64,000 bases of DNA from a virus (taxonomy: Duplodnaviria > Heunggongvirae > Uroviricota > Caudoviricetes): positions 197,424-261,423 of IMG/VR virus record IMGVR_UViG_3300021166_000052. The stretch is one strand, 5' to 3'. Within the stretch, counting starts at the first letter, position 1. Each line of letters begins with the position of its first letter. The notes under the pieces were generated by a model that was given only the letters and a program-made list of their open reading frames with translations, searched no databases and was not told where the DNA came from. Positions 943-26,121 of the stretch are shown here, one piece after another. The translations under genes and the position numbers were made by a program.

Positions 943-2034
943 ATGAGTAAATTAATCATTAATAATCCTAAAAATAACTTTAGTGCAATCATACCACCTA
1001 CAAATAAAGATGGTAGTTATAATGGTTATTCGCGTGGGAGCATGTGGATAAATATATTAACAGGGGTATGTTATTTATGTGTTAATGATATTTTAAATGG
1101 AGCTATTTAGAATCCACTAAGCACTGCTGATATTTCAGCGTTACTACAACGTTTAGATAATTTATCAATAGATTCTACTAATTTCGATTATAGACTTGAT
1201 ATTTTAGAAAATGATTCAACTGAATATGATAATAGATTAAATATTGTAGAAAGTTATGAAAATAGGATAACTATTTTAGAAGATGATTATACTACAACTG
1301 AAAATGATATTACGAGTTTATTTAATGTGATTGAATTAGATGAAAGTATAATTTCCAATCACGATGTGCGTATTATTAGTATAGAAAATTATGATACCAC
1401 TAATACTTCACATTTAAATATATTAACACAAAATATAACGGATTTACAGGATCGGTTATTAACAGACGAAACTAATTTAAAATTAGTTAATTTATTGGAT
1501 GTAGATTTATCAACTGTCCCTATTGATAGTCAAGTATTGAAATATGATTCGACTAATAATATATAGAAAGCTGGTGAAGCTGTTAATGCAGTAGCTGGGC
1601 TGGTTGATGTAGATTTATCTATACCTGCTTTAAATGATCAAGTACTAAAATATAATTCTATTAGCGATAAATAGTCACCACAAAATGTCATGAAGAGTGG
1701 ATCTATAACATTTAATATTACAAATGATATTACTATATTAATGAATAGTGTTAGATAGTATCCATTGGAAGAAATTTAGTTAACATCTGTTCAATGTTTG
1801 GTCAGTTCTCCTCCATTAGGAAATAATATAATTTTAGATATAAAAAGGAATAACGTTTCTATATTAGAGGGAAGGATATTAACAATTACACAATCAAATA
1901 ATATTGGTAATATATTATTATTCGATAATATTAATGTATTATCAACTGATTATATTACGGTCGAAATTAAACAAATAGGATCATCAATGCCGGGAAGTGA
2001 CTTATCGGTTAGATTAAAATATAATTTATATTAA
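943..2034 (+). CDS. tail-fibre-like repeat protein (TAG-recoded, 5 in-frame TAG)
   Basis: Single frame (start mod 3 = 1) runs continuously from ATG 943 to TAA 2032-2034. It is interrupted only by TAG at 1108, 1564, 1672, 1756 and 1777. Two copies of a DxDLSxxxxDxQxLKYxS(TAG)K repeat shared with gene 23604-24131. ORF-track fragments 1327..1566 and 1798..2034 are pieces of it. Confidence 0.6.
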
Positions 2035-2045
2035 AGGGAAAATAA

Positions 2046-4085
2046 ATGTCAGTAACACTTAATACAATAGGAGCCAACTCAAGACAATTAGTAATTACAG
2101 AGGAAGTTGGCCCTACAAATATAATTACCGCAATAAATACATCATTAACTGATCTGGGATAGACGCTGCATGACACTATAGTATCAGGTTCAAAGAATTG
2201 TTATACTTGTAAAGTATATGTTGCTCCAAATAATGATACAGCAACAGGTGGACCAACTTATAAATATTTAATATTAAGATTTGATGCACCTAAACAACAG
2301 TAGTATACTAGTTGTTCTGAAAATTAGAATAATACAACCCACGTAGCAACTAATGAATGTTTTACCAATGGTAGATCAATCCCATTACCATTACAGTATG
2401 ATAATTGTACATTATATATTTTTGCATCTAATAGATATGCTGCATTTTTAGGTAATGTTAATTCTGAATAGAGTGCATAGCAAGGTGTATTTGAATTTGA
2501 ACGGGAAGCCCCTGAAGATACCGCAACACTAGGATATCCGTGTTTTGGATGGACAACCTCTTTAAATATAGGCGAACCATAGGCAGGATCATTAGCAGCC
2601 GCAACTTCTACATATGGTCCTCTTCCATATGTTTTTTCTGTTCCAAGAACACGGACAGGGAATACTGGATTTGCCGCTATAACCGAATTTACAATACATA
2701 CTGCATTTGGAATGTATCCACCTAATAATAGTATATTTACATTATATGGTGTAACAGGTGGATTAACTGCTGTTGATAATAGTCATAATGGGCATTTAGG
2801 CGCATTTAATCATGGATATCGTTAGGATGGTGGTAAAAAAATAGCAAGTTCATTAAAATTGGGAGGATTTTCTATAGCATATCCAACCGGTAGAATATAT
2901 GGATTGACTGTAATTCCACCAACTGGGGCTGTATTAGATACAGTTGTTATTCCTTATGATGTTGATAAAAACTTTTTTAGTACAGATGGAACAAATGTCA
3001 ACACATTCATTTTACCAATCTCTGGTGGTTATTCAGACACTCCCTCAGTTGTTGCAAATGGATTAATTTCAACCGCATTTATTGGCGGTCCAGCTTATAC
3101 GGTTAATAAAGTAGAATTGATTAAAGGTAGAGTTGCATACATGGCAACATCTGGTGGTATTGTAAAACTTGATCTTGGTACTGGTGTATATACTACATTA
3201 AGTACCGCATCACTTCCTATTCAAGATGTTAAATATGATGGAGGATTGTATTTATATTTCTCTACAGCATCTGGTGTAACAAGACTGACAGTTGCTGATG
3301 ATACTTTAACTACGTTAGCATGTGGGACTGGTGGAACCTCCGCATTAGAAGTAGATGATGATTTTGTTTATGCATCACATAGAACTACTAGCACAACACC
3401 TAAGTTGGATATTATTAATAATACGACGTTTACAGTAGCTAGAACCTATACATCTACATATACAATGGCTATTGCACAGTCATAGAATGCATTATGTACT
3501 GCTGATTATGATGGATATGTATATGCGGCTATGCCAATATCAGCTAGTTCAAATATCAATGATTTACGATTGTTTAAAATATTAGGATCAGATGGATCAT
3601 CAACCAATACATTACCTACACAACGAACAGTGTCAAGTACTGGCGGTTTTATGTTTTAGGATGGGTCATTAATAATTTTATGTTATTCAGCGGCAGCAGT
3701 ATCAATTAATGGAATATTACCGACTACACTAGCCGATGGTATAGTTCCTGTCAATTTTGCAGCTACATCACCTTATACTAGAACCGGTTATTTAAATTGT
3801 GTATATCCATTTAAAGGTTATTATATTATACCAATACCAACTGCAACAAAGGTTGCATCTTTTTATAATAGATTAAATCAGCTCAACACAACTGCATTTG
3901 CTACATTTGGGGCAACGAATAATTATATGACAATTTCAACTATTGGGATACCTACGGCAGGAGCTACTGATTGTTGTTCTATGATAGTGGGAGGGGCATG
4001 TAATTCATTTTATAAAATAAGCAACACCCATAATATTTATAATAATGCAGGACAGCCTACATCAAATATATTAATACCCGCATAA
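2046..4085 (+). CDS. large virion/tail structural protein (TAG-recoded, 9 in-frame TAG)
   Basis: Codon-by-codon check of frame 0 from ATG 2046 to TAA 4083-4085. The only interruptions are TAG at 2160, 2301, 2325, 2469, 2478, 2580, 2823, 3483 and 3657. Gly/Thr/Ser/Asn-rich like receptor-binding proteins. Only one TGG in 680 codons. Confidence 0.6.
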
Positions 4086-4089
4086 ACTA

Positions 4090-4560
4090 ATGGCAGAATA
4101 GACCCCCGATTTTACACCGGAAACGTTTTTTAATCACAACTATGCCTATGAATATCCAATTATGTTGGGTACATAGGCAAGTTGCGAGTTTCAAAGACAA
4201 TTGAATTTTACTATTATGCGTTTTTTTATACAATCCCAGATTATATTTAAACAAGATGTGTATAAATATCCTAACGTGATTGGTATGTGGAACAATACAA
4301 AATTTATACCAACAAATGCTTATAAGTATCCAAATTTAAAAGGATTATATACAACGTTGATATTCAATGTAAATCGGTCATTTACATAGTTGAATATAAT
4401 TAAATATGGATTAGCTATAAATTCATATACGTAGGAAATAACTCCCCCAAATGATAATTATTCTAAATGTTTAGCAACCGACTAGAGAGTTTAGAAACAA
4501 ATGTCAACTACCAACCAAACACAAACGATAACAAAATCATCGAATCAATATTAGGCATAA
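4090..4560 (+). CDS. hypothetical small protein (TAG-recoded, 7 in-frame TAG)
   Basis: ATG 4090 lies just after the upstream TAA. A single frame runs to TAA 4558-4560 with 7 TAG. Contains ORF-track fragment 4201..4389. Confidence 0.4.
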
Positions 4561-9676: not shown

Positions 9677-9714
9677 TAATTAATTAATAAAAGTCAATAG
9701 TATAGGGACATTTA

Positions 9715-11343
9715 ATGTTAAGATATCAGCCTAAATATAATGTTAATGTAGATTCAACTGGATCTGGGGATTCTACAACAATAAATTTAATAAACGCGGG
9801 TAATGTTTAGGTAACAAATATTACATCTGGGGGTATTGTTTCTTCTAAAACATATATTCCCAATACTGTCCCTGCTAATTATATTTTAACTGCTGCTACA
9901 ACAGATCATCAAACTGTAACAATATTTTTTATTGCAGAACCTACAACATTATAGTCTCCAACTATTACAGTAGATGGAATAACGTGTACTAATTTAACAC
10001 AATATGCAGATGATAGACGATTATTTTCAGGGTCTGTTACAATAACAGTCGCATCATCAAAAACGGTTACACTAACTTCGAATACAGGGAAAAGTACAAC
10101 TGTTCAAGTCAATCGAGCCGCAATGGCCCCAACTATAACCGATATCAGATTTATTAATGGATATCCGGGTACTCAAACCGAAGTTAAACAAAATGATACA
10201 TTGACAGTTCGTGTAACATTTGATCCAGCAGGAACTGCCCCCACCCAAATAGATGTTATGGATTATGGTATATCACAATCTAAGACAGTTTTAACATCTT
10301 CAACTGAATTATCATAGGGAACAGTTCACACCGCCACATTTACAATATCCACAAAATATGTAGGCAACACTGCCCAATTATTACCTATACAATTACGAGC
10401 AAGAAATTTATTTGGTACTGCTAGTAATTATATAATTTCCAATGTATATGGTACTACGGAAACTATACAGGTAATGAAAGGATGTGATTTAGTTCCTACT
10501 ATTACTGTTAATGCCACTACATACCCATCGGGGCAGGGAGCTTTTAAAAATACAGAATCTGGTAACATAAATGTTACTATTTCTAATTATACAGGTGTTA
10601 CATATTCTTCTCCAAATGGAAATTTTACAATTACATCTCCAACTATATATGCTGCGTCAAAAACTATAACTTGTACTCATCCCGGAACATATAATGATTC
10701 TGTAAATAATATTAGAGTTGTAGCTACTCGTTCTGCAAATGCAACTTCTACAACAGCAAATTTCATAGTAGAAGTTGCAGATATTGCGCCTACTGTGAAT
10801 GTATATCATTCTGAATCATATTTAAGATCTACTGAAGCCGGTTACACTTATACTATATATGCTACTAGTAATCAAAATCTATTATCAGCCCCATCTTTTA
10901 ATATACCAGTTTCTGGTATATAGGTTGCTGGTGCATTTACTGGTTCTAATAAAAATTAGCAGCGAACAATATCTATTAGGGATAGTGATATAAAAGGAAC
11001 GGCTCCATAGAGTGCTACTATATTACCAACTAATAAAGCTAAAATTGATGCAATAATTACTGGAAACCAAATTGTTAGGGGATTTAGATCGAGAATTTTA
11101 CCATTACCTGCTTTTGGAACCAGTTGTACGTTAGGGACCGCTGTAACAAGTATTGCAAATTTAGTATTTTCATAGAGTTTTAAAACAGCTATGGCATATT
11201 CCCCAATTGGATCAGTTGCACCAATTGTAGGTGGATAGACTATTAGTGCATTAAATAATAATCCAACAACTATTTATATTTTAGATTCTCAGGCGGCGGC
11301 TGCTTCATCAGCGGCCAGCACAATAACTATAGAGGAAACATGA
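9715..11343 (+). CDS. virion/tail structural protein (TAG-recoded, ~9 in-frame TAG)
   Basis: Single frame from ATG 9715 to TGA 11341-11343. ORF-track pieces 10123..10317 and 10474..10923 are in the same frame. Thr/Ser/Asn-rich. No TGG seen in the long fragments. Confidence 0.55.
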
Positions 11344-11400
11344 TTAATATAAATAGTAAATATAATTAATTTAATAATATATTTAATGGGTTTGTAATAA

Positions 11401-12021
11401 ATGCCAACTACCGCCGAATTAGCATTCGAACTAGAACGCCGGATCATTGTTTTCCATAACGCAACATCTTTACCAGATGATACTCAATTAGGTTATATAG
11501 GTGATCCTAATAATGTTGTTAATGGTGCAACTGCTGGTCAAACTTTATTATATAATTGTCCATCTGGAACATTTTTTTTAGATAAATCACAAAATCCACA
11601 TGATATTTATCAAAAAGTACAAGATGGAGCCGGTGGATTATAGATTAAACATAATAGTTCAACTACTACAACCGGGACAATTGAATTTACTGATACAACA
11701 GTATTAGCATCTACTGATATCGGAGGAGGTAGAGTTGTAATAGTTTTTAATAATAGTGCAACATATGCGGATAACACAACTAATTATTTTGGCCAAATGG
11801 GAATTACATTAAATGCAGCATCAATTGGTGCAAGTTTAAAAGTTAGATTAGCTGGTATTATTGATGATGTAAGTTTTAATTTTATAAATGGTCCGTTATA
11901 TTTAAGTAATAATGGATTAATTACACAAGTAGAACCGATAACCAATGCTAGTGTAGTATTAGGTTATCCAAAAGATAACAAATCATTTTTATTTGATCCT
12001 CAGACAATTATAGAAAGGTAA
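11401..12021 (+). CDS. structural protein (1 in-frame TAG at 11641)
   Basis: Fragments 11401..11643 and 11797..12021 share a frame and are joined by one TAG. Ends in TAA. Confidence 0.5.
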
Positions 12022-12026
12022 ATTAT

Positions 12027-12533
12027 ATGGCTGATAAATATTTAAAGAACAATGGCGCTTCTTATAAAGAAGTAGGATTTTTAGTAACAAGTACTGGTGC
12101 AAGTGATGCTGGTAAAGGTGTTGGGTTGAATGCACAGGGCCGTCTGGACGAATCTTTGATGCCCGTGGGTCTTGGTGCGGATACTAAACAAATCGTGGCT
12201 GGCGAGGCTCTGGGTGCTGGTAATTACGTTAATGTTTATAGTGACTCAACAGTTTTTAAAGTCCGTAAAGCGGATGGAACTATTGAAGGAAAATTTGTCG
12301 ATGGCTTTGTATTGGCAGCATTTGCAGCCGATGATTTAGCAACTGTATACTTTGAAGGAACTAATAATCAATTAACCGGACAAGTTGCAGGGGATGTATT
12401 TTTAGCAACAACCGCAGGTGCTGGTACATCTACACCACCTAGCGCATCTGGAAATGTTGTTCAGCGAGTAGGTGTTGCAATTAGTCCAACTGAAGTTAAT
12501 TTTGAACGCGGAATGCCTACTGTATTAGCATAA
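12027..12533 (+). CDS. structural protein, Gly/Ala-rich
   Basis: Complete 168-aa ORF. No TAG and no TGG. Confidence 0.5.
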   Translation: MADKYLKNNGASYKEVGFLVTSTGASDAGKGVGLNAQGRLDESLMPVGLGADTKQIVAGEALGAGNYVNVYSDSTVFKVRKADGTIEGKFVDGFVLAAFAADDLATVYFEGTNNQLTGQVAGDVFLATTAGAGTSTPPSASGNVVQRVGVAISPTEVNFERGMPTVLA

Positions 12534-12559
12534 TCTTTGTTTTTTTGGTTTAAAAAATA

Positions 12560-13285
12560 ATGGCACGTAAACGACCACTAGCAATATACAATGGTATACT
12601 TAGAGAAATTAACAAAGGAGATACACTACCGCCTGATGTTTTAACGGATACTATCTCTTTTGGTAATGGGGTTGAAATAGTACTATCACAACACGGTGAT
12701 AGTACTTCAACCACCTTCACTCTATCTCGTCCTGTTGAGAAAGTATTAGTTGCTGTTAATGGTTTATTACAAACAAATTATATTCAACCAAATGGAACAG
12801 ATCAATTAGTATTAGGATTTACACCTGCATCCGATGATTTAATTATTGCATATTGTTTTGGCGAAACTACCACAACAGGAATAGCAACACTTAATCGCGT
12901 TTTGGATACAACTACTGATGGAACTACTAGTAATTATACATTAGATACCACTGCATATAATGTGATGGTTTTTTTAGATGGTATATTACAATATGATTTT
13001 GTTCATGGAAACGATTCTGATTATTTATATTTAGGATTTGTGCCAATAGCTGATAAAAAATTACAAGTATATTCTGTAGTTGGTGGTATAAAAGGACCAA
13101 AGGGTGATAAAGGTGAACCCGGTGAAGCGGCGGATCACGGCTTATTAACAGGACTTGGTGATGATGATCATCCCCAATATTTAAATGAAAGCCGTGCTGA
13201 TGAAATTTATATCAGATTAGATAATACTGATATTGGAGTAGACACTAGTTATCATCATATTCAATCAATATCATTGGATACGTAG
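12560..13285 (+). CDS. tail fibre protein with short collagen-like Gly-X-Y segment
   Basis: GPKGDKGEPGE triplet repeat. An upstream domain repeated in gene 14985..15926. Ends at TAG 13283-13285. Reading through would run about 150 nt further to TGA, so the end is uncertain. Confidence 0.5.
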   Translation: MARKRPLAIYNGILREINKGDTLPPDVLTDTISFGNGVEIVLSQHGDSTSTTFTLSRPVEKVLVAVNGLLQTNYIQPNGTDQLVLGFTPASDDLIIAYCFGETTTTGIATLNRVLDTTTDGTTSNYTLDTTAYNVMVFLDGILQYDFVHGNDSDYLYLGFVPIADKKLQVYSVVGGIKGPKGDKGEPGEAADHGLLTGLGDDDHPQYLNESRADEIYIRLDNTDIGVDTSYHHIQSISLDT

Positions 13286-13437
13286 TATATTGAACATAAT
13301 TTAAATAAATATCCTTCCGTAGTTATAATTGATTCATCTATGGATAAGGAAGAAGTATATGGAACAATAAAACATATAGACTTAAATAGACTTAATGTCT
13401 ATTTCTCATCAAACTTTACTGGAGAGGCATACTTATC

Positions 13438-14967
13438 ATGAAATTTTTAAATAATATTAATCTAACATTAAATGAAATCCAAAATGTAAAATTACATAAT
13501 CTAGGATCGGCACCTACTGGTTATGAAGGTTTAATTTACTACGATACCGCATTAAAACGTACCGGCGTTTATATGAATAGCACCTAGAAGTATTTTGTAA
13601 CATATGATTTACTAGGTGCTGCTTCTGGTGTTGCAACCCTGAATGCAAGTTCATTAGTGGTTCAAAATCCAGCAAGTGCTGCTTCTACATCAGGCGGAGC
13701 CGCTGGAGTTATCCCAATTACCCCCGCTGGTGGTAGATTAGACGGTTCATTTATTCCGCTATTAAATAATATACCAGCACCAACTGGGGCGGTATCGTTA
13801 AATTCACAAGCTATTACTAATTTAGCTAATCCTACCAATCCTCAAGACGCTGCTACTAAAAATTATGTAGATTCTGCTGTACAGGGACTTGATACTAAAG
13901 CATCTGTTCGTGTTGCAACTACGGGTGCTATTACTTTAACAAATACTCAAACAGTTGATGGTGTTTCATTAATTGTAGGTGATAGAGTATTAGTAAAAGA
14001 TCAAGGAACAGCTTCTGCTAATGGTATTTATATAGTATCTGCTACAGCATAGACAAGAGCTACTGATGCTGATTCGTGGAATGAATTAGTTGCAGCATAT
14101 GTGTTTATTGAAGAAGGTACAACTTATGCAGACACTGGTTAGGTTTGTACCGTTGATGCTGGTGGTACACTTGGAACAACTGATGTAACATTTGCTCAGT
14201 TTTCTGCCGCCGGTACTGTAACTGCTGCCAATGTAGGGGCAGGAACTGGTACTATCTTTAGAGATAAAACAGGAAATGTAATCAATTTAAAATCTATTGC
14301 CGCTGGTTCTACTAAATTAAGTATTACTAATAATGCAGATAATATTACATTGGATGTTAATGAAGCAAACTTAGTATTTGCTAATATGACATCTTCTGGA
14401 ACATTAGCTGTTGCAAAAGGTGGTACTGGAACTACTACTTCAACTGGTACTGGTTCTGTTGTATTATCAAATTCACCTGCATTAGTTACGCCAACTTTAG
14501 GAGTAGCAACTGCTACATCTATAAATAAGGTAACTATTACTGCTCCAACATCAGGAGCTACATTAACTATTGCAGACGGTGCAACATTATCTACTGCTGG
14601 ATCATATACTTTAATGTTAACTGCTACTGGAGCAACAAATGTAACTTTTCCGACATCTGGTACATTGTTAAGCACAGCAGCAGCAGTAACAGTTGCACAG
14701 GGTGGTACAGGTTCAACTACAGCGGCTGGAGCTAAAACTAATTTAGGTTTTATGACTCGTTATTCTGCTGACATTGGTAATGGTTCATTGACTACTATTC
14801 CAGTTGTACATGGTTTGAGTACATTAGATGTTCAAATTACGGTATATGAAAAAGCTGGAAATTCTGTAGTGTATCCTGATATTATGTTAACTGATGCTAA
14901 TACTGCTTCAATTGTATTCTCAGTAGCTCCAACTGTAAATCAATATAGAGTAGTTGTAATAGGATAA
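13438..14967 (+). CDS. tail fibre protein (conserved phage tail-fibre N-terminal domain; 3 in-frame TAG)
   Basis: The segment VRVATTGAITLTNTQTVDGVSLIVGDRVLVKDQGTASANGIYIVSATA(TAG)TRATDADSW...ADTG(TAG)VCTVDAGGTLGTT..FAQFS matches a widespread phage tail-fibre domain. An AKGGTG...TNLG motif lies downstream. Frame is continuous through fragments 13657..14052 and 14350..14967. Confidence 0.65.
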
Positions 14968-14984
14968 TTAAAGGAGATTGACTA

Positions 14985-15926
14985 ATGCCTAAAATATTGG
15001 GACAGACGGAAGTAGTTGGTAGTTTAACGGCTACTTCCGTCAATGGTATTACTGGTTTAAATTCCAACGATGGTACAATTCAACCAAATGGTAGTGTAGC
15101 AGACGCTGGTATATCTAATTATGCAGCAAGGGCAGATCATGTTCATGTTGGTGGTATCGGTGGCGGTGCGTCTTATTTAAATGATTTACTTGATGTCAAC
15201 ATTAGTTCTGTTGCAGATGGAAATGTATTATTATATGATTCAGATACTACCAATTAGGTTAATGTGGTATCAAATATAGAAAGTATCGAAACTGTTTTAG
15301 ATACTACAGGAAATGGAACTACTACATTTACTTTATCTAAAGCGGTTGGTAAAGTATTAACTACAATAGATGGTATAGTTCAAAGAGATTTTACACAACC
15401 AAATGGTACAAATCAGTTAGTTTTTGGTTTTATACCAGATACAACAGAAAATGTTACAGCATATAGTTTTAATAATATATCAGTAGGCGGTGGTGGAGGA
15501 GCTAGTACATTAGATGAACTAACTAATGTTAATGCTCCATCTCCAACTGAAGACCAAATATTATCATAGGATTCTACGAGCGGCCAGTAGATTGCAAAAA
15601 CATTAGTTATTGGTGATGACACATCTGGTATAGTTTTATCAGAAATTGGAACTGCTACTATAAATTTCGGTGATTAGCCCGGTCAAAATGAAGCCACAAT
15701 TATATTAGATACATTAACTAATATAACATCTACTGCTAAAATTACAGCATAGATAACCGCTGATTCTACATCGGAAGATCATTCAGAGAGTGACCACCGA
15801 TATTTAGCATTATTTACAAAATTAGTTTGTACATCTCCGATTGCTGGTGTTGGATTTACTATATATTGTATATCAGAACATAAATTAGAAGGACATTTTA
15901 CTATCAATTAGGCATAGACTGATTAA
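14985..15926 (+). CDS. tail-fibre-like protein (7 in-frame TAG)
   Basis: Frame 0 is continuous from ATG 14985 through TAG 15255, 15567, 15588, 15675, 15750, 15909 and 15915 to TAA 15924-15926. Shares a domain with 12560..13285. Confidence 0.5.
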
Positions 15927-15939
15927 GAGGAGATGAAAC

Positions 15940-16707
15940 TTGCCACCATATAAAACATATATTAGAGAGTAGGATTGTAAGCCACCATCACATATACCAA
16001 TTAGAACAGATAATCATTAGTCTACACAAGGATTAGTTTATTGTAATATGTTTAATGAATCGTTAATGGAAAGTATTTCTGGGGTTGTTGGTGATCCAAC
16101 TGGTAATATAATAACACCAGATGGTGTAAGATTTACTGAAGATACTGATAGATTGGTATATCCACCACATATAAAACCTATGCAACTAAATCAAACTAGC
16201 ACTGTTATTGTAACTACTAAATTTGATGTTAAAAAATAGACACCAAATATGAAGTTATTAGCTGTTGATGGTAATGACATTACATTTTATAATTTAGGAA
16301 AATATATTTATTTGGATTTTTATTATGCTGGCAACGCTTCTGTTATTGCTTATAATGATAGTTATAATAAGTAGACGCAATGGATTTCTATACGGGCCGC
16401 TACTTATAAAAGTATATATATAAATTGTGAAATGGCAACGCAAGTAATGGATATGAATGGTGGGTATATTAATTCAACATCTAGTATGACATTTGGTAAT
16501 AGTGTTATAGATGATAGTAATCCATTTAAAGGTACTATTGGATATATGTTAGTTTATAATAGAACTCTTACTGAAAGAGAAATGACACTATTATAGCAAA
16601 ATCCATATCAAATGTACGAACCCGAAGTATTGTATATTGACCAAGAAAGACCATATAATTATCAAATCACTAAAACAAACCGAAGTAAAATATTTAATTT
16701 AAGTTAA
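15940..16707 (+). CDS. LamG/concanavalin-like jelly-roll protein (paralog 1; TTG start; 5 in-frame TAG)
   Basis: AAGAGGAG RBS 7 nt upstream of TTG 15940. C-terminal FKGTIGYMLVYNRTLTEREMTLL resembles the LamG fold. N-terminus parallels gene 17114 (YKxYIxE(TAG)DxKPP...H(TAG)S). Confidence 0.4.
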
Positions 16708-16718
16708 AGGGAATAAAA

Positions 16719-17114
16719 ATGGCATAGTCTAATAAAACGACCCTCACTGGAGTTGGGGCCGAATTAAGTGAGATCACAAATATTGATGCTAATTATGTAG
16801 ATGTTAATCATTATACTGAGTGGGTAACATTAAACCCCGGTGAAATTGCAGATTTAGAAATTAATGTGGTTTTTGGTGCAGGTGGAACCGATGTTTGGTA
16901 CAGAGTTGTGAAAACATTAGATGAAACTTCTGAAGCTCCACAAAATATACCATATATAGCAGGAGTATTTGCATATTCATCTAGTGGCAATTATAAAAAA
17001 TCAGTAGTAATATCTAATTGTTATAAATTTAGAATCGAATTTAGAAAAGGTGGAACCACTGCTGGTACATATACACCTTATGTATATATGAGAAAGAATG
17101 GTGTGTCTGTGTAA
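16719..17114 (+). CDS. small structural protein (1 in-frame TAG)
   Basis: ATG 16719. Fragment 16866..17114 is in the same frame. Stop TAA overlaps the next ATG (gtgTAATGg). Confidence 0.4.
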
Positions 17115-17914
17115 TGGCGGCATATAAACAATATATTAAAGAATAGGATACTAAACCTCCATCTGGTACAAAATTAAGAACCGATGGCCATTAGTCTGTT
17201 AAAAATCTAGTATATTGTAATACATTTAATGATTCATTTACAGAAAGTGTCAACGGAATAATTGGTACACCTTATGGTAATATATTAACACCAGATGGTG
17301 TTTGTTTTACAAATGATACTGATAAATTAGTATATCCAGCTAATACATTTAAAATGTTAGGTTCACTAATTGGCCCCTATACAATTTTATTTTCGTTTAG
17401 ACCACCAGATATATATCAAACAGAAGCAAATTCATATATTATTGGCAACGGATCACAAGAAATAGCTTTATTTTAGGTAGGCCCATCTACATTTAATATG
17501 GATTTTACAATGGGACTATCATCATTAAATCAATTAAATACGGCTCTACATTACGACCAATAGCAACACTGGCAATTAATACGTACATTACAGGGAACAA
17601 TATCATTTTTAAATGGTGTTATGATAGAAGCATCAGACGAACCGGAGTATGGTGATATAATAACTACAAATCCATAGATTTTTGGTAATAATAGCACAGA
17701 TACAGGGGTATTTAAAGGAACAATCGGGTATTTTTATATTTATAACACTGATTTTGTTAATTATCATACCCCGACATAGGAACTAGATTCTTTATAGAAA
17801 AATCCATACCAGATGTTTGAATCAGAAGTATTATATATTGATCAAGAAAAACCAAAAATGTATAATATAACTGAAACTAATAGATCACAAAATTCGATGT
17901 TAATTGGTTAGTAA
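17114..17914 (+). CDS. LamG/concanavalin-like jelly-roll protein (paralog 2; ~8 in-frame TAG)
   Basis: Read by eye in frame 2 from ATG 17114 to TAG-TAA at 17909-17914. N-terminal 60 aa are about 60% identical to gene 15940. C-terminal FKGTIGYFYIYN motif. Confidence 0.4.
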
Positions 17915-17957
17915 TGTTAATAAAATAAATTAATTATTAAATATAAGGTTTTGAAAA

Positions 17958-18275
17958 ATGATTCCAAAAATAGAAGATAGAGATTATAAATATCAAGGTA
18001 ACAATATTTGTAGTATTTTTGCTACTTTAAATATATATGCTGATGACAACACAACTATCGTAGATAGTGTAAAGTTACAAGCAAATTTTGATATATCTGA
18101 TGTAGATAATGTTGTTGCGTTTGCAACCGAACAATTATCATCACAAGTAATGGATTATATGTCAAAATTAGTTTATATTGATAATTTAAGAAAACAGATA
18201 TTTCCAACGTCAATAGACTTTAAAGACGCAATTAATTCTATATTAGATCCAATTCAAGCATCACTTGTTGGATAA
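17958..18275 (+). CDS. hypothetical protein
   Basis: Complete 105-aa ORF. Confidence 0.45.
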   Translation: MIPKIEDRDYKYQGNNICSIFATLNIYADDNTTIVDSVKLQANFDISDVDNVVAFATEQLSSQVMDYMSKLVYIDNLRKQIFPTSIDFKDAINSILDPIQASLVG

Positions 18276-18309
18276 TATAATAAAATAAGAAATAAATAGG
18301 AGATCAAAC

Positions 18310-19776
18310 ATGTCATTAGATACAACAATTAAAGGATCGACAACTGGAAATGGTGCAGAAGTTGATTCTGTTCATAGATTAAAAGTAAACTTAGCAACCG
18401 GTGATGTACCAGCGGAAGTGGGCGGGGTACGCAATTTTTCCGAAGTAGATCCCGGTACACGAACAGGCTCTCCTTTATTACGATCAAATGAAGTTAGTAT
18501 GGATTATCGAGCTAGAGTTGGAACTGATACTGTTCTATTTAGTGATATCTTTAATGCTGGTGCCCAAAATATTAGTTTATATAAATGTGCATTCACCACA
18601 ATGACATTAACTCAATCTGCTGGATTTTTGAATATAAATGCAGCGGGAACATCTACAGTATCTGGTAACTATGCACAATTACAAACATAGAGATATTTTC
18701 CTTTGATTGGAACATCGCCACTCGCTGTAGAATTTGTAATAATGGTTGATAGATATCCAGTTGCAAATGAAACATTTTTATGTGGTTTGGGCGTAGCGAA
18801 TGCTGCAAATGAACCAATTGATGGTGTGTAGTTTGAATATACTGATGCTGGATTGAAGGGTTGTCAAAAATATAATAGTGGCGTTACTGATAAAGTACTA
18901 TTAATGAATGCTAATGAATTAACTTTTAATACTACTAAAAAATTTGTATTAGTTGTTAGTTATGATAAAATAGAATTTTAGATCAATGATATTTTATATG
19001 GTACATTAAATAGAGATGCTGCAACTGGTATACCGTTTATTACTGGGGCATTACCATGGTTTTGTACTAAATATAATAATGCTGTAATTGGAACATCTCC
19101 AAATATGAAAGTAATGATTGCTAATGTAAATATTACTTTAATGGATATTTCCTCTAATATGACATAGAGTGGCCAGATGGCCAGTGCTGGTCTTGTTATG
19201 CAGCAGATGAATGGTGGTACTGCTGGTTCCCCACAAGTCCAATGGGCTAATACTGCATTACCTACAGCAGCAGCAGCAACAAATACTACAGCGGCATTGG
19301 GGGCATTTTTAGGAGGTATTTTCCAAATGAACGCTCCTGCAACATCCGCAACTGATATTATTATAGCTAGTTATTTAAATCCAGTCGGTGGCGTTGCACA
19401 GACTCCACGAACAATTAAATTAAGAGGAATTAAAGTAGATTGTGTTAATGCAGTTGTTGCTGTTGCCACAACAGCTACTACATTTGCAGTAGCTGTAGCA
19501 TAGGGTGGAACAACTTTAACATTAGCAGCCACTGAATCTGCAAGTTTCGCAACTGCAACTGTCAAAGCTCGTAGAATACAACCAATTGGTGTAATAACAT
19601 TCCCGATTGCATCACCGGTAGGATATGCAGCATCGCCAATTCAGTTCGATTTTGAAGCACCACTTCTTATAAGTCCGGGTGAGTATGTTCAAATAATAGC
19701 AAAACCACTAATTGGAACAGCGACATCAACTGAAGTATTTCAATGGATTATATCACCAAATTTGTATTGTGAATAA
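18310..19776 (+). CDS. large structural protein (5 in-frame TAG)
   Basis: Fragments 18310..18690 and 19177..19503 are in the same frame. Continuous to TAA 19774-19776. Ala/Thr-rich. Confidence 0.5.
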
Positions 19777-19795
19777 TATTGTGGTATATTGATAT

Positions 19796-20278
19796 ATGAA
19801 ACAAAAAATAAGTAAATCTATAATTAGAGACTTATCTGAAGCAGCATCGGTTGTACTTATAAATGATAGTACAACCGATGCTGCTTGGTATCCTATAGTA
19901 GCATCAATATCATCTGGTACTGTATCTAATATATATACAAGTTCTACTAAATTAACATTTAATCCCGCAACTGGAAATTTTAGTGCAACTCAATTTACGT
20001 CATTATCAGATAAAAAATTAAAAGAAAATATACAACCAATAGAAGATGCGCTTTATATAATAAATCAGTTAGAAGGTGTAGAATTTGATTGGAAAGATTC
20101 TAAAAATCATAGTTCTGGTTTAATAGCACAGGATGTAGAAAATATACTACCATTTTTAGTTGTTGAAACAGAAAATAAATCTATAAATTATAATGGTATT
20201 ATAGGATATTTAGTAAATGCTATCAATGAGTTACATCAAGAAGTTAATATATTAAAACAAAAACTAGAAGATAAATAA
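19796..20278 (+). CDS. short tail fibre/spike with C-terminal intramolecular chaperone autoprotease (peptidase S74) domain
   Basis: LSDKKLKENIQPIEDAL...LEGVEFDWKD...GLIAQDVENILPFLV is the classic S74 / endosialidase-chaperone signature. Confidence 0.7.
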   Translation: MKQKISKSIIRDLSEAASVVLINDSTTDAAWYPIVASISSGTVSNIYTSSTKLTFNPATGNFSATQFTSLSDKKLKENIQPIEDALYIINQLEGVEFDWKDSKNHSSGLIAQDVENILPFLVVETENKSINYNGIIGYLVNAINELHQEVNILKQKLEDK

Positions 20279-20280
20279 AG

Positions 20281-20844
20281 ATGGAAAATAGTAATTTTAT
20301 TGGTTACAATAATACTTATTATTGTAACTCTGACTTAGATTCAATTTATGTAACTGAACAATATATCATTGATAGATTTGGTGGTTTTAATTTGATGAGT
20401 TAGGGATGGAACAACGGTGGCCAACTAGGCTCAGAAAATATAGTAAATCGGTCTTCCCCAGTACAAGTGGGTAGTTTAACTAATTGGAAGTTGGTTTCAT
20501 GCGGAAGCTATTCAACATTTACATTAGCAATTAAAAATGATGGTACTTTATAGTCTTAGGGAAATAATAATGAAGGTCAATTGGGATTAAATGATACTAC
20601 CCCTTATTCTTCACCTGTACAAGTTGGAAGTTTAACTGATTGGAAGTTGGTTTCATGTGGATTATATCATACCATGGCAATTAAAACCAACGGAACGCTG
20701 TAGGCGTTTGGTTATCATGGTAATGGTGAATTAGGATTAAATGATATAATAAGTCGCTCTTCACCTACTCAAGTTGGTAGTTTAACAACTTAGAAAGATG
20801 TCTCCGCTGATTGGGGACAGACTGTGTTATTATTAAATGATTAA
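20281..20844 (+). CDS. RCC1-repeat protein (5 in-frame TAG, each at a conserved Trp position)
   Basis: Codon-checked single frame. Repeats of GTL(TAG)S(TAG)GNNNEGQLGLND..SSPVQVGSLTDWKLVSCG match the RCC1 consensus GTLWAWGxNxxGQLG. The third repeat has SLTT(TAG)KDVSA where the other repeats have SLTNWK / SLTDWK with TGG. Confidence 0.7.
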
Positions 20845-20896: not shown

Positions 20897-21448
20897 ATGA
20901 ACATAAACATCGGATCTGGTTATAAAAAATATAAAGATTACATAAACTTAGATGCTGATTTCAATTGTAATCCTGATATTTTATTTGATTTAGAAAATGA
21001 CATCTTCCCATTTGAAGACAGTTCTATTGATAAAGTAATAGCACATCATATTTTAGAACATATTGGAGATGGATATTTTCATGTTTTAAAAGAATTGTAT
21101 AGAATATGTAAACATGGAGCAATTATCGATATCCGCGCCCCACATCATAATCATGAAGTATTCCATAATGATCCAACCCATAAAAGACCCATCACAGTTG
21201 AAGGTATGCGTCTTTTTTCAAAAAAATATAATAAATATGAAATTGATAGAGGGGGATCTTCTTCTACACTCGGTATTATTTATAATATAGATTTTGAAAT
21301 TGTTGCATTTGATTATGTATATGATTCGTTTTATAATGAAATATTTAAAACAAACACCCAAACTCAAAATATTAGGTTATGTAGAGAGTTTATAAACACT
21401 ACATTAGAAACCCATATTATTATTACACCAATTAAGGACGTTATATAA
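20897..21448 (+). CDS. class I SAM-dependent methyltransferase
   Basis: N-terminal IGSG..Y.....N.D motif and overall Methyltransf_11-like pattern. No TAG. Confidence 0.55.
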   Translation: MNINIGSGYKKYKDYINLDADFNCNPDILFDLENDIFPFEDSSIDKVIAHHILEHIGDGYFHVLKELYRICKHGAIIDIRAPHHNHEVFHNDPTHKRPITVEGMRLFSKKYNKYEIDRGGSSSTLGIIYNIDFEIVAFDYVYDSFYNEIFKTNTQTQNIRLCREFINTTLETHIIITPIKDVI

Positions 21449-22788
21449 TGCATTTACAAACTATTATAGATTTTTTAAGTAAGGTCGATGAATTAGAAAC
21501 TGCTAAAATAATATTAACAACATTTTCTAAATATGCAAAAAATTTACAACAGTATGATGAGTTGGGTATGTTATTTGAAAAGATTAAAGACTATAATGAT
21601 TCAATAGCTATGCTAGAAAACTGTTTAAATATAGCAACATCAACAGAACAGTTATATTCAATTCGTGCAAATTTAGCAAAAGTGTATAATCATCTCAACG
21701 AACCTTATAAATCATTATTCTATTCTAACTTAAATTATGAATTAGTAAAGACGGATTATGATACTCAAATGGAACAGAGTTTTTCATACTATTTAATAGG
21801 TGATTTTAATAAATCATATCAAATACAATTAGACCTTTTGAATATTAATAATATATCAGATGAAATTCATAAAAAAATCCGTTTTAACATGGGAACATTT
21901 GAAATTGCAAATGGTGATTTTAAAAGTGGGATGAGGAATATTGTAGTCGGTGGTAAAGATATAGGAATTTGGAAATCTATAAATAGATTTTATGATAAAT
22001 GGGATGGAGGTGTAACCGATAAAACATTGTTAATATTTGCAGAAGGTGGAATCGGTGATGAAATTATTAATGTTAGATTTATGAGTGTTTTAAAAAATAA
22101 AGGTATAGATGCCATTTGGATTGGTCATAATATTGAATTGATTAATTTATTTCAAAGAAATGGATTTAATGCATGTTTAGAATCTAATATTGATCCACTA
22201 CAAGATTATGTATATTGTGAATCAATGATGTTATCAGTGTTATTAAATATAGAAGAATTTGAATTATATAACGGGTCATATTTTAAACCATCTCAACAAT
22301 ATATTGATAAGTGGAAGTTACTATTACCTGATAAATTTATTACTATTAAATGGTCAGGCAATCCATTTTATGATCATGATTTACATAGGACCGTCCCAAT
22401 TGATAGATTAATAAATACAATTAGAGAAAAAACTGATATACCCATTATTTCATTACAACTAGATGATACCGCTGGTATTCATAATGATTATATATTATAT
22501 GATATACAATCATGGGAAGATACATTAGCTATTCAATCATTAGCTAAATTAAATATTACATCTTGTACAAGTACCGCTCATACAGCATCTGCAATGGGAG
22601 TTGATTGTGTAGTTATTCCACCAATATGTACATACTTTCCATGGTTAAATTTAAATGAAAATCATACTAGTAAATGGTATGGAAAAACCACAAGAATATA
22701 TCCACAAACCAAATGGAAAGATTGGTCAGATCCACTTGAATATATTGCACAAGAATTATTATTATTAAATAAAACGGAGATTATATAA
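21448..22788 (+). CDS. putative glycosyltransferase (GT9/heptosyltransferase-like core with N-terminal helical extension)
   Basis: TLLIFAEGGIGDEIINVRF resembles the GT9 ILIIRxxxIGDVI motif. Weak. Confidence 0.35.
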   Translation: MHLQTIIDFLSKVDELETAKIILTTFSKYAKNLQQYDELGMLFEKIKDYNDSIAMLENCLNIATSTEQLYSIRANLAKVYNHLNEPYKSLFYSNLNYELVKTDYDTQMEQSFSYYLIGDFNKSYQIQLDLLNINNISDEIHKKIRFNMGTFEIANGDFKSGMRNIVVGGKDIGIWKSINRFYDKWDGGVTDKTLLIFAEGGIGDEIINVRFMSVLKNKGIDAIWIGHNIELINLFQRNGFNACLESNIDPLQDYVYCESMMLSVLLNIEEFELYNGSYFKPSQQYIDKWKLLLPDKFITIKWSGNPFYDHDLHRTVPIDRLINTIREKTDIPIISLQLDDTAGIHNDYILYDIQSWEDTLAIQSLAKLNITSCTSTAHTASAMGVDCVVIPPICTYFPWLNLNENHTSKWYGKTTRIYPQTKWKDWSDPLEYIAQELLLLNKTEII

Positions 22789-23574
22789 ATGAAAACTTTT
22801 TATTTTTTAGCGGGGTTGCCTCGATCTGGGTCAACTGTATTGGCCTCAATTTTAAATCAAAATCCGGGTATATATGTGACACCCACAAGCCCAATGTTAG
22901 ATTTATTGATAGCTAATCAAAATGCTTGGTATGATGCCCCATCGGTAAAAGCAAATCCTTTTCCAGAACAATTGACAAATATTACAAGGGCAATGATTGC
23001 TGCATCATGGCAACACCGACCCGAAAATATTATAATTGATAAAAATAGAGGATGGATGAAAAATATTGAAGCGTCTGAAATATTATTTAATAAAAAAGTT
23101 AAGATGGTTGTCACTACCAGAGATTTACCTAGTATAATGGCATCGTGGTTACGATTGATAAAAGATAACACTGACTGTTATTTTATAAGAATGCTAAAAG
23201 GTAAACATCTTAAAATTACAGATGATAGTATATTATCAGAAATGTGGTTTAATATGGTAAAAGATTGTATGGAAGGTTTAAAAAATGTTAAATTAATTGC
23301 ATCTGATAGGATACTCTTAATTGATTATGATAATTTTGTAAATAATCCATATGATATATTAAATAATATAACTACATTTTTAGAATTACCTATTTATAAT
23401 TATGACATTAATAATATTATAAATGATACTCATGATGATGATCTTACTGCGTGGGGTTTAGATGGTATGCACACAATACGGCCAATTTTACAAAAACAAT
23501 CAAATGATCCACGAATGTTATTAGGTGATCATTTATATAATAGATTTATTCATATAGAAAAACAATACAATTAA
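22789..23574 (+). CDS. sulfotransferase-family protein
   Basis: N-terminal GLPRSGSTVL matches the PAPS 5'-phosphosulfate-binding loop (PKSGTT-like) of sulfotransferases. Confidence 0.5.
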   Translation: MKTFYFLAGLPRSGSTVLASILNQNPGIYVTPTSPMLDLLIANQNAWYDAPSVKANPFPEQLTNITRAMIAASWQHRPENIIIDKNRGWMKNIEASEILFNKKVKMVVTTRDLPSIMASWLRLIKDNTDCYFIRMLKGKHLKITDDSILSEMWFNMVKDCMEGLKNVKLIASDRILLIDYDNFVNNPYDILNNITTFLELPIYNYDINNIINDTHDDDLTAWGLDGMHTIRPILQKQSNDPRMLLGDHLYNRFIHIEKQYN

Positions 23575-23603: not shown

Positions 23604-24131
23604 ATGGCTGAACAACAAATTGATAAAAATGTACTTAAAAACTTACCCGATATATTACTTGATAATTTAATTGATGTGGATTCAAGTGGTGTATTAAGTG
23701 GCCAAATTTTAATTTATGATTCAACTTCAAACACTTAGAAAGCAGGAGAAAATTTAATTGATATATCATTTGAAGATATATCAAATATTGACCTAAGTGT
23801 ACCGCCCATAGATGGCCAAACGTTAATTTATGATGCTACTAGTGATAGTTAGAAACCCGGTGAAAATACATTTATATTATCATTAGATGATATTTCTGAC
23901 ATTGATTTAAGTGTCCCGCCAACTGAAGGTCAAATATTAAAATTTGATTCAACAAGTGATAATTAGAAAGCTGCTGATAATATAATTGAAATTGAATTAG
24001 ATGATATTTTAAATGTTGATTTAAGCGTTGCTCCGACAGATGGACAAATATTGATGTATGATTCAACATCAAACACATAGAAAGCCGGTGATGGTGGAGG
24101 CACTGGTATTTTAGATGGAGGTACATTTTAA
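23604..24131 (+). CDS. tail-fibre repeat protein (4 tandem ~40-aa repeats, each with one TAG)
   Basis: Four copies of DLSVPPxDGQxLxYDSTSxx(TAG)KAGE. Same repeat family as 943..2034. TAA overlaps the next ATG. Confidence 0.5.
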
Positions 24132-24343
24132 TGATTATAATTACAAAACATACACCAACCCCCGGAAAAGTTCCAACAAGTACAGATTTAGTTGTTGGTG
24201 AATTGGCAGTAAATACGAACGATAAAAAATTATTCACTAAACATACTGATAATAATATTATAGAGATTGGAGGTGGTTCCGGTGGAACTTCTGGTACATT
24301 TCCAGAAGTAGATTTATTACGAATGGCACTAGGAATAATTTAA
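24131..24343 (+). CDS. hypothetical small structural protein
   Basis: 70-aa ORF in an overlapping TAATG junction. Confidence 0.4.
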   Translation: MIIITKHTPTPGKVPTSTDLVVGELAVNTNDKKLFTKHTDNNIIEIGGGSGGTSGTFPEVDLLRMALGII

Positions 24344-24355
24344 TAGGTTAATTAA

Positions 24356-24733
24356 ATGGCAAGCAGTCCACAATATACAGCGATTCCTAAAGTAGGAATA
24401 GGAAAAATTTCAGTAGCAAATACTAGTTTAACTGGTACAGGAACACTTGTTAATGTTGTTAGTGCTGGTACAAATGGGTCAAGAGTTGATAGTGTAACAG
24501 TTAAGGCAACTACAACTACCACAAATGATATAGTACGATTATTTTTATATGATGGATCTATATATTCACTATTAACAGAAATATTAGTGTCGGCAATAAC
24601 AATAAGTTCAACTATAAAATCATTTGAAACTACCATTACATTGGGTATTGTTATTCCATCTGGTTATAGTTTATATGCATCAACTCATGTTGGACAGAGT
24701 TATAATATTCTTTCATTTGGCGGTGATTTTTAA
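24356..24733 (+). CDS. hypothetical structural protein
   Basis: 125-aa ORF. TAA overlaps the next ATG. Confidence 0.4.
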   Translation: MASSPQYTAIPKVGIGKISVANTSLTGTGTLVNVVSAGTNGSRVDSVTVKATTTTTNDIVRLFLYDGSIYSLLTEILVSAITISSTIKSFETTITLGIVIPSGYSLYASTHVGQSYNILSFGGDF

Positions 24734-26121
24734 TGAACTATGGTACATTTGGGTTTCCACTAAAACAAACTACATCGACATCATTAGCTGATTCATCATA
24801 GGCTACTGTTACATATGATTGGGTATCAGATGATAATTTTATTCCCGGTGATGTTGTTACAATGACCAAAGGATTAATAAAAAAACCGTTTTAGCCTTTA
24901 CCAGAATTATCAACTGTAACAGATACTGAATTATCTAAAATTACACATGCTGGTCAAGTGGGACTGGGCGCAGGTACTTCTATATGTAGTTTAAATAATG
25001 GTAACTATGCAACAATTGTTAATATGAGTTTTTGTATTTTCGATTATAATGATAGATTAATATCACAAGTAGCATTAGATATTTATGCGGCAGAGTATTC
25101 TGTGGTTAAACAATTAAGTGATGGTAATATATTAGCAGCGTAGTCAGCTAATGGTGCGCTTAAATTTATAATTTATAATACATCAGGGTCGGTTGTTGTT
25201 TCCGTTAAAACTATATTAGCTTCTGGTTCTCCAACTTATATAGATGCTGCTGTTTATAATGGTGGATTTTTAGTTTGTTATCGACCAGCCACCCCATATT
25301 ATCCAACTTATACTAGATATAATAATGCAGGAACTCAACAGCTTGCACCAAGAACAGTAGGAACGGCAGCTTGTACTTTTGCACATATAACAGTTTTATC
25401 AAGTGGTGATTATATATTATCATTTCTTGATACAACCGCTACTTTTGTTAAATAGCAACGGTATAATAGTTCAGATGTAGCACAGGGATCATTGACATCA
25501 TTAAATGCAATTGCTACTAGTGTGTTTGATGTTACCGCACAAAAAGATGGGGGCTTCGTGTTTGTTTAGAAAGCCACTGCTACTTATAATTTATATGTAG
25601 ATAAATATAATTCATCATTTACAAAAATAGTTACTTCATCATGGGTTTGTAAAGGAGAATCATCTGCTACCAGAGTATTAGATATAGAAGAAGCATATGG
25701 TACAAATGAAATATTGATAATATGTAGAGCAGAAACATCAGCAGGGGCTTATATAAGTAGATTAGAGCCAACTACATGTATTTTAATAAAAACCATTTAT
25801 AAAGTACAAAATGTTGGGTCGTATGCAAATATATGTGGCCTAACAAATGGTAATTATATATATACTTTCGGATTATCTGGGTCGGCTGCATTATATATAT
25901 ACAAACATGCAACTTATACTATAACTATATTAGGAATAGCAGAAAACGTTGCACCCACTGGAAATATAGTAACTGTGAGATTTCATGGAAATAATGCGAC
26001 TGATACAATCGTTCCGGCCAACGTCGATTATGGGACCGAGGCCAAACTATTTGATCATAGTTCGACAGGGGGATGTAGAGGAACGTTCATAAATAAAAAT
26101 TGTTTTTTACGAGGAATGTAA
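24733..26121 (+). CDS. structural protein (~6 in-frame TAG)
   Basis: ATG 24733. Fragments 24958..25143 and 25714..26121 are in the same frame. Confidence 0.5.

Follow-up and report, generated by a model that had tools for sequence, protein, structure and literature searches.

The 64,000-nucleotide (nt) stretch analysed here (positions 197,424 to 261,423 of the IMG/VR record IMGVR_UViG_3300021166_000052, a Caudoviricetes virus; hereafter the window) contains a gene for a protein with RCC1-type repeats, whose reading frame is crossed by five TAG codons. It starts 2 nt past the stop codon of the upstream gene and extends from an ATG at 20281 to a TAA at 20842-20844, giving 564 nt and 187 sense codons (Table 1). 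The translation shows RCC1-type repeats of the form …DGTL-TAG-S-TAG-GNNNEGQLGLND…SSPVQVGSLTDWKLVSCG…, and the peptide spanning the TAG position(s) reads GTLWSWGNNNEGQLGLNDTTPYSSPVQVGSLTDWK. TGG is also present in the gene, at codons 43, 69 (SLTNWK), 121 (SLTDWK) and 178.

An earlier note, made from the sequence alone, had proposed that one repeat position of this protein is written with TGG in two units and with TAG in the third. The sequence bears this out: units 1 and 2 have TGG (20485-20487 and 20641-20643) at the position matching codon 171, whereas unit 3 has TAG, and the corresponding DNA of the units reads agtttaactaatTGGaag, agtttaactgatTGGaag and agtttaacaactTAGaaa. The four TAGs quoted in the note are all present, and the fifth stands in the context LMS(TAG)GW. 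With TAG masked as X, the protein matched PF00415 (RCC1) over three stretches with 94 bits (cut-off 21.7, E-value (E) 8e-27) and PF13540 (RCC1_2) with 38 bits (cut-off 22, E=1e-9), while the 93 bits obtained with the RCC1-like domain PF25390 lie below its cut-off of 150. The scores for the first two families exceed the curated cut-offs, and the RCC1 assignment of the note, which was to fall if neither gave a significant match, holds.

To see which residue homologs carry at the TAG positions, the masked protein was used as a search query and the best 120 hits were placed in query-anchored pairwise alignments. Tryptophan (Trp) was found opposite all five TAGs in 91-99% of the aligned homologs. 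Only nine of the 150 covered columns have Trp as their most frequent residue, and there the query carries TAG five times, TGG twice, and methionine and phenylalanine (Phe) once each; the probability that all five TAGs fall into these nine columns by chance is 2e-7. Tyrosine (Tyr) or Phe was seen at no more than 3% in the TAG columns of close homologs. All five columns with a glutamine (Gln) majority in the family, on the other hand, are encoded by CAA or CAG in this gene and never by TAG. The homolog columns thus agree with the claim that the TAGs occupy conserved Trp positions and provide an internal control for a reading of TAG as Trp.

The profile comparison suggested in the earlier note gave a partial answer. 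Depending on the residue placed at TAG, the Pfam RCC1 profile yielded 118.7 bits for Trp, 116.6 for Phe, 110.9 for Tyr, 103.1 for leucine, 94 for the masked residue and 89.5 for Gln, so that Trp was clearly split from Gln but hardly from Phe and Tyr. As the generic profile is weak on this last distinction, discrimination among the aromatic residues rests on close homologs and orthologs. Good as the RCC1 gene is as an internal control, the interchange of TAG with TGG between genomes, together with the reciprocal depletion of TGG, is the stronger proof.

TAG and TGG in the window and in related genomes

When TAG was treated as a sense codon, coverage of the window by open reading frames (ORFs) of at least 100 amino acids (aa) rose from 0.776 to 0.90. 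In-frame TAGs cluster in three blocks (943-4560, 9715-20844 and 23604-26121), and a few other genes, such as the protease gene at 51015-51752, also carry them. The structural module contains 72 TAG and 19 TGG codons, as opposed to 9 TAG and 142 TGG in all other plus-strand genes (Fisher P=3e-33). The content of TGG-encoded Trp drops from 1.14% to 0.34% in the structural module, with similar contents of Tyr, Phe and Gln. The genes for PolB, NAMPT, NUDIX and RNA ligase are free of TAG in the window and its relatives. Single genes carry up to 9 TAGs in the window and 19 in the relative L004 (a 2,529-aa protein with 3 TGG), numbers that speak for a nearly complete reassignment and not for leaky read-through. 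In-frame TAG has neighbouring bases like those of TGG, and no read-through context was seen.

Termination in the window relies on TAA (67 genes) and TGA (23 genes), and TAG might end about four genes at most; in relatives that are rich in adenine and thymine (AT-rich) and use the standard code, TAG makes up 15 of 171 stops. About four genes have TAG within their last eight codons. Two of these, at 37058-37438 and 44172-44447 (both on the plus strand), are non-structural genes with one such TAG each. TAG may still terminate them, and short C-terminal extensions would follow once it is decoded. In the fibre-like proteins, a motif (V/I)LxYDSxxxx-TAG-K(A/P)GE occurs in at least eight copies within three genes (23604-24131, 943-2034 and 14985-15926 (+)); its TAG is always at an aromatic position, and the motif represents further internal repeats with a fixed TAG.

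Two other genes of the window provided independent residue assignments. In the papain-family cysteine protease, three of the four TAGs lie opposite Trp of the closest solved homolog (PDB 3ois, E=1e-49), and one TAG corresponds to the NSWG Trp of the family, which is the same Trp in cathepsin K. Scores against PF00112 were 62.3, 59.6 and 54.0 bits with Trp, Tyr and Gln at TAG, respectively. The TAGs of the tail sheath gene coincide with columns that are aromatic or have a Trp majority in 55 homologs; the closer ones have Trp without exception at positions 201 and 403 and almost without exception at 432 and 487. Over 13 sites of the RCC1 and sheath proteins, the log-odds amounted to +58.4 bits for Trp, +1.8 for Phe, -6.6 for Tyr and -50.6 for Gln.

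Comparison with relatives showed direct interchange between the two codons. One sheath match (P0121, 74.5% identical by BLASTP) is a fragment whose ORF ends exactly at window TAG codon 415. It comes from the relative L003/L060 (Logan SRR23971560), a contig that is TAG-recoded as well; of the eight TAG sites of the window sheath, four are TAG and four TGG in the sheath gene of this contig. Across all alignable orthologs of L003 (71% identical), the nine alignable window TAGs face TGG five times, TAG four times and nothing else. In L004 (JGI Ga0256913, 65 kb, guanine-cytosine (GC) content 28%), window TAGs face TAG six times, TGG twice and Tyr once. TAG positions are conserved among genomes 49-71% identical. 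Since the sheath, the protease, the TAG/TGG interchange in relatives and the depletion of TGG all agree, the extension of TAG as Trp from the RCC1 gene to the whole genome is strongly supported.

Further recoded genomes were reached using the PolB of the clade as an entry point (Table 1), and every readable PolB relative, down to about 47% identity, had a recoded appearance. This brings the recoded genomes to at least nine counting the window (one, L072, only probably so), all independently assembled. By contrast, 55 loci retrieved by their sheath genes from JGI and IMG/VR (at most 49% sheath identity) use the standard code, except for L004 and maybe L030. For the latter, a distant sheath relative (IMGVR_UViG_3300020048_000168, 1419-21231), coverage increased from 0.74 to 0.90 when TGA was read as sense and to 0.80 when TAG was, and it may be a phage with recoded TGA. 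Deposited phages are distant even at their closest, with about 33% identity of the sheath to phiKZ-like jumbo phages and about 25% identity of PolB to T4-like phages. One TAG-recoded contig (JAOZRH010000001.1, loci L066/L070) is deposited inside a metagenome-assembled genome (MAG) of a Candidatus Neomarinimicrobiota bacterium (GMC6.concoct.244), which is either a case of mis-binning or a hint at the host; the binning of this one contig may indicate a marine setting.

Table 1 Features of the window (position 1 is its first letter) and further recoded contigs (length in place of position; coverage by ORFs under the standard code and with TAG as sense)
Feature	Position or length	Strand	Remarks
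RCC1-repeat protein gene	20281..20844	+	~3 repeats, N-terminal extension ~35 aa, 5 in-frame TAG, 4 TGG
In-frame TAG, codon 41 (LMS-TAG-GW)	20401..20403	+	Trp in 85/93 aligned homologs
In-frame TAG, codon 91 (GTL-TAG-S-TAG-GNNNEGQLG, first TAG)	20551..20553	+	Trp in 116/120 homologs
In-frame TAG, codon 93 (GTL-TAG-S-TAG-GNNNEGQLG, second TAG)	20557..20559	+	Trp in 114/120 homologs
In-frame TAG, codon 141 (GTL-TAG-AFG)	20701..20703	+	Trp in 115/120 homologs
In-frame TAG, codon 171 (SLTT-TAG-KDVSA)	20791..20793	+	Trp in 102/103 homologs
Main TAG-recoded structural block	9715..20844	+	Sheath, fibre-like proteins, RCC1 gene
Tail sheath gene	9715-11343	+	8 TAG, 0 TGG; phrog_15433, E=2e-65
Second TAG-rich block	943..4560	+	Three genes, 21 TAG, 3 TGG
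Third TAG-containing block	23604..26121	+	Includes repeat protein with LxYDSTSxx-TAG-K x4
Papain-family cysteine protease gene	51015..51752	+	4 in-frame TAG
Tail-fibre C-terminal intramolecular-chaperone (S74-type) domain gene	19796..20278	+	PHROG tail-fibre/baseplate families, E to 3e-38; TAG-free
Methyltransferase, TPR-containing and sulfotransferase genes	20897..23574	+	TAG-free; syntenic with L002
tRNA-Leu (anticodon UAG, reads CUA)	781..866	+	Same spot in clade relatives
tRNA-Ser (anticodon GCU)	62155..62242	+	No amber decoder
IMGVR_UViG_3300033153_009093	180 kb		GC 23%; coverage 0.69 to 0.93
Ga0451374_82261	166 kb		GC 27%; coverage 0.75 to 0.93
GCA_029931905.1 JAOZRH010000001.1	197 kb		GC 29%; coverage 0.85 to 0.95
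ERZ925377 k127_1187071	103 kb		GC 20%; coverage 0.79 to 0.95
Ga0495726_49145	69 kb		GC 27%; coverage 0.80 to 0.91
ERZ23495603 scaffold_557, probably recoded	28 kb		GC 29%; coverage 0.69 to 0.80

Weighing the possible identities of TAG

We estimate the probability that TAG is read as Trp in the structural genes, presumably late ones, and in a small number of other genes at about 0.88; the RCC1 gene would then be full-length and functional, with its five TAGs specifying conserved Trp residues. Several observations weigh against this. Neither the 64-kb window nor the clade sequence scanned, which covers part of each genome, yielded a tRNA with a CUA anticodon, a tryptophanyl-tRNA synthetase (TrpRS) or a release factor. 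According to the account of Yaniv 1974 given in PMC2965240, an E. coli tRNA-Trp whose anticodon is changed from CCA to CUA is charged with Gln and not with Trp, so that the insertion of Trp would need a special solution; this charging probably explains the usual reassignment of TAG to Gln in phages and makes one to Trp unexpected. At the level of residues, Phe scores only 2 bits below Trp in the generic RCC1 profile, homologs have a Phe or Tyr majority at two of the sheath TAG sites, and where TAG is paired with something other than TAG in the most AT-rich subclade, Tyr is found as often as Trp.

These last three points, together with a score of Tyr just 8 bits under that of Trp in the same profile, are what speaks for another aromatic residue (Tyr or Phe) or an ambiguous aromatic mix, which we consider unlikely. 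Tyr is 16 times as abundant as Trp in the genomes of the AT-rich subclade and is a single mutation away from TAG (to TAT or TAC), which accounts for its high absolute count as a partner. When the same alignments are counted per residue, 9-14% of TGG-encoded Trp is paired with TAG, whereas the share is about 1% for Tyr and 0.2-0.5% for Phe, and Trp thus pairs about ten times as often as Tyr. Moreover, Trp constitutes 23% of the non-self partners of TAG, where about 1% would be expected if TAG were a true Tyr codon. The scarcity of Tyr and Phe in close RCC1 homologs, their log-odds, and a depletion in TAG-rich genes that affects TGG alone and leaves the Tyr and Phe codons untouched likewise favour Trp. 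A reading as Gln, on the other hand, has precedent on its side, as genetic code 15 is the sole TAG reassignment for phages in the literature searched; the glutaminylation of a Trp-derived CUA tRNA in E. coli and the presence of tRNA-Gln(UUG) genes in some clade members are also compatible with it. It would turn the match to Trp sites into a coincidence, and we see practically no chance of this in view of the strongly negative log-odds over 13 sites, the loss of bits relative to Trp in the Pfam profile, the use of CAA/CAG at the Gln-majority columns of the RCC1 gene, the absence of Gln opposite any window TAG in the recoded relatives, and the fact that TGG, but not the Gln content, is lowered in TAG-rich genes.

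Trp could also be inserted with the standard code kept, if the mRNA underwent adenosine-to-inosine editing (UAG to UIG, read as UGG) or if a modified G had been miscalled as A. Editing of UAG to UGG is what happens at the classic amber/W site of hepatitis delta virus (HDV), and the failure to find an amber tRNA in the sequence scanned is in line with this idea. However, near-complete editing of about 80 sites in 64 kb would be required, the bases before and after TAG offer no shared context to an editing enzyme, and no deaminase stood out among the annotated proteins of the window. The pattern recurs in nine assemblies, made in different projects and with different assemblers, and TGG and TAG stand side by side in the same genes and the same repeat family, all of which makes editing or miscalling very unlikely. 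More improbable still is a non-canonical residue at the Trp positions, either pyrrolysine, for which UAG is the codon in some archaea and bacteria (PMC12626013), or a Trp analogue. Although an amber decoder was likewise missing from the sequence scanned, the free interchange with TGG between close relatives argues for one and the same residue, and the window has no credible machinery for pyrrolysine: no pyl domains were present among its annotated proteins, and the only matches to a Pyl-type tRNA were sub-threshold ARAGORN ones inside coding regions. Finally, TGG becomes TAG by a single G-to-A transition, which is favoured in AT-rich genomes and could have arisen in pseudogenes or as assembly or sequencing errors. 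We give this explanation virtually no weight, since the interrupting stops are TAG only and lie almost all in essential virion genes such as the sheath, frameshifts and in-frame TAA or TGA are absent, conservation runs across the TAGs, whose positions are kept between the diverged genomes, and read-through of TAG alone is enough to bring coverage to about 0.9.

The RCC1 protein and its gene neighbourhood

A syntenic relative that uses the standard code (L002, an ENA contig of 126 kb with 32% GC) has the same gene order as the window, with genes for an S74-domain protein, the RCC1 protein, a methyltransferase, a TPR protein and a sulfotransferase. Its RCC1 ortholog (P0054, 188 aa) is 52% identical in the multiple alignment and has Trp opposite three of the five window TAGs. 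A confident AlphaFold model of P0054, with a predicted local distance difference test (pLDDT) score of 87, superimposes on three blades of the seven-bladed propellers of UVR8 and RCC1 over 164 columns, with a root-mean-square deviation of 1.6 Å and 37% identity. The template-modelling (TM) score is 0.78 when normalised by the query and 0.41 when normalised by the target, and about 0.4 of the UVR8/RCC1 chains is covered.

The repeats of the window protein share the motifs GTLWxWGxNxxGQLG and SSPVQVGxLxxWxxV with the RCC1/UVR8 propellers. However, a closed β-propeller of this family (PF00415) comprises seven repeats, and only about three are found in the 187 aa of the phage protein. Based on the three-blade model and the nearly equal size of both orthologs, the RCC1 protein is predicted to be a conserved three-blade fragment and not a complete propeller; unlike its seven-bladed counterparts, it would need oligomerisation or a partner to close the ring. 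The phage gene further differs in being located in a tail-fibre module. The earlier note had described an RCC1 β-propeller beside tail-fibre genes; the adjacency is confirmed by the tail-fibre S74-domain gene directly upstream, while the full propeller has to be reduced to some three blades. As the order of S74 followed by RCC1 is common to the window and L002, a tail-associated role appears plausible from conserved gene position.

Directly upstream of the sheath gene, a cassette of NUDIX, NAMPT and NUDIX genes for NAD salvage occupies 5989-9614 (+). The cassette has been conserved in L003, and L004 has it too; neither copy contains TAG.

Decoding of UAG, known recoding systems and implications

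Genes with 8-19 TAGs imply efficient decoding, and hence a cognate CUA tRNA that carries Trp, along with an escape from release factor 1 (RF1). The confinement of TAG to virion genes suggests a gating of late genes, as proposed for code-15 phages. Early in infection, the standard code of the host would be in use, in keeping with the TAG-free replication and metabolic genes. Later on, TAG would be read by a Trp-charged tRNA with a CUA anticodon, which would either be encoded in another part of the genome or descend from a host tRNA, and RF1 would probably be outcompeted or inactivated at the same stage, so that the TAG-laden structural genes would become translatable only once the switch is on. 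Decoding might involve a tRNA with re-engineered Trp identity, a host tRNA-Trp modified by the phage, or a TrpRS variant; a suppressor tRNA elsewhere in the genome is the simplest expectation.

The searches for such a decoder used ARAGORN in its default, permissive, intron and organellar modes and Rfam at E<=1, and the clade sequence scanned is estimated at a few hundred kb in total. The tRNAs found in clade loci were Leu(UAG), Leu(UAA), Gln(UUG), Phe, Tyr, Ser, Pro, Ile and Arg. No tRNA at all was found in the 41 kb walked on the 180-kb contig, and a scan centred on YqeY-like genes yielded an array of eight tRNAs in L074, none with a CUA anticodon. No release factor gene or obvious RF1 inhibitor was recognised among the window proteins. 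The tRNA-Leu with the anticodon UAG was rejected as an amber decoder by base-pairing, and GC-rich intergenic islands, considered as hidden RNAs, turned out to be short ORFs.

The tRNAs of the clade cluster by a conserved pair of a methyltransferase gene and a YqeY-like gene. This hot-spot (window 27-866 (+), L061 11194-12398, L063 14747-15590, L068 12189-13200 and L072 10076-12414) contains a class-I S-adenosylmethionine (SAM) methyltransferase, which gave a GidB/RsmG-like match in L068, one or two YqeY/GatB-tail-like genes, and tRNA-Leu(UAG) or a tRNA array, and sits at the boundary of TAG-free and TAG-rich genes. In L072, an HDV-like ribozyme at 14779-14849 (+) (Rfam RF02682, 46.1 bits, above the gathering score) abuts the 3' end of tRNA-Ser(UGA). 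Such a theta-ribozyme next to a tRNA is an arrangement described mainly for recoded gut phages (PMC10879173).

At the other end of the window, 13 nt after tRNA-Ser(GCU), a 70-nt element with 57% GC (62256-62325 (+)) has a cloverleaf fold, a UUCGA T-loop and an ACG anticodon, which make it a possible small tRNA-Arg(ACG); neither ARAGORN with default settings nor the tRNA model of Rfam picks it up. We rejected this element as a theta ribozyme because it did not align to the L072 ribozyme, had no match to the HDV family and folds as a tRNA-like cloverleaf. Right after the tRNA genes, 62399-63448 (+) encodes a MiaB/RimO-like radical-SAM protein (UPF0004 N-terminal domain with 23.5 bits, and Radical_SAM). 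Enzymes of the MiaB type methylthiolate A37 in tRNAs for codons starting with U, and the protein could have a bearing on UAG decoding. The set of RNA-repair and tRNA-handling genes is unusually rich, with three RNA-ligase-family genes and one HD phosphohydrolase in the window (26237-27322, 48250-49269, 59295-59927 and 60085-60822) and Thg1-like, PTH2 and RlaP genes in relatives (L060 5345-5764; L061 3607-5007). An unusual form of decoding could be connected to the methyltransferase/YqeY-like/tRNA hot-spot and to the RNA-repair genes.

Recoded phages in the literature searched reassign TAG to Gln (code 15) or TGA to Trp (code 4) and include crAss-like, Lak, Jade, Agate and other gut phages (bioRxiv 10.1101/2021.08.26.457843; PMC9523058; PMC11210395); TGA-to-Gly also appears in the phage-recoding literature, with code-25 hosts. 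Borges et al. reported that phages whose code differs from that of the host show only TAG-to-Gln and TGA-to-Trp, explained this by natural side-reactions of glutaminyl-tRNA synthetase (GlnRS) and TrpRS, and detected a suppressor tRNA in no more than 35-40% of the recoded phages (10.1101/2021.08.26.457843). The window resembles such phages in its mosaic genome, where the standard code suffices for replication and metabolic genes and structural genes are full of one recoded stop, in a low code-11 coding density that is restored by read-through, in having standard-code relatives, and in the ribozyme abutting a tRNA in L072. It differs from them in that TAG stands for Trp rather than Gln and TGA terminates 23 genes, and in that no suppressor tRNA, release factor 2 (RF2) or aminoacyl-tRNA synthetase was found in the sequence scanned. 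The clade is also unrelated to crAss and Lak phages, judging from its distant phiKZ-like sheath and T4-like PolB.

No report of TAG-to-Trp in phages was found in the literature searched, the only such case being the plastid code of Balanophoraceae; a report outside the searchable literature is possible. This plastid code is NCBI table 32. In the plastids of these parasitic plants (Balanophora, Thonningia), UAG-to-Trp is accompanied by permanent loss of plastid RF1 and import of a nuclear tRNA-Trp(CUA), and has been attributed to codon capture under AT pressure (PMC10268348; bioRxiv 10.64898/2026.01.09.698701). Both systems are very AT-rich, with TAG replacing TGG and TAA as the main terminator. 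In the phage, however, TGA is still a stop, and one and the same genome uses TAG in some gene classes and hardly in others, a division suggestive of a conditional switch in the course of infection. The code of the window is best filed as the UAG-to-Trp form of phage stop-codon recoding, seen in at least nine genomes (one only probably). It is likely that these genomes represent an unrecognised clade of large (about 65 to more than 200 kb), AT-rich (20-37% GC) tailed phages with UAG as Trp in virion genes, the first in a virus or bacterial system, with a perhaps unusual mode of decoding.

Phage recoding has been regarded as restricted to TAG-to-Gln and TGA-to-Trp owing to the natural promiscuity of GlnRS and TrpRS, a rule that a TAG-to-Trp clade breaks. 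Such phages imply a route to a Trp-charged, amber-reading tRNA in bacteria, which is of interest for the evolution of the genetic code and as a possible source of new orthogonal parts for amber suppression with Trp. Routine gene callers have no TAG-to-Trp code for phages; code 11 fragments these genomes and code 15 places Gln at every TAG, so that structural proteins, including receptor-binding modules, are mis-annotated in public data. With both standard-code and recoded members, and a share of TAG that appears to rise with AT content, the clade and its relatives offer a natural series in which the spread of a codon reassignment can be followed.

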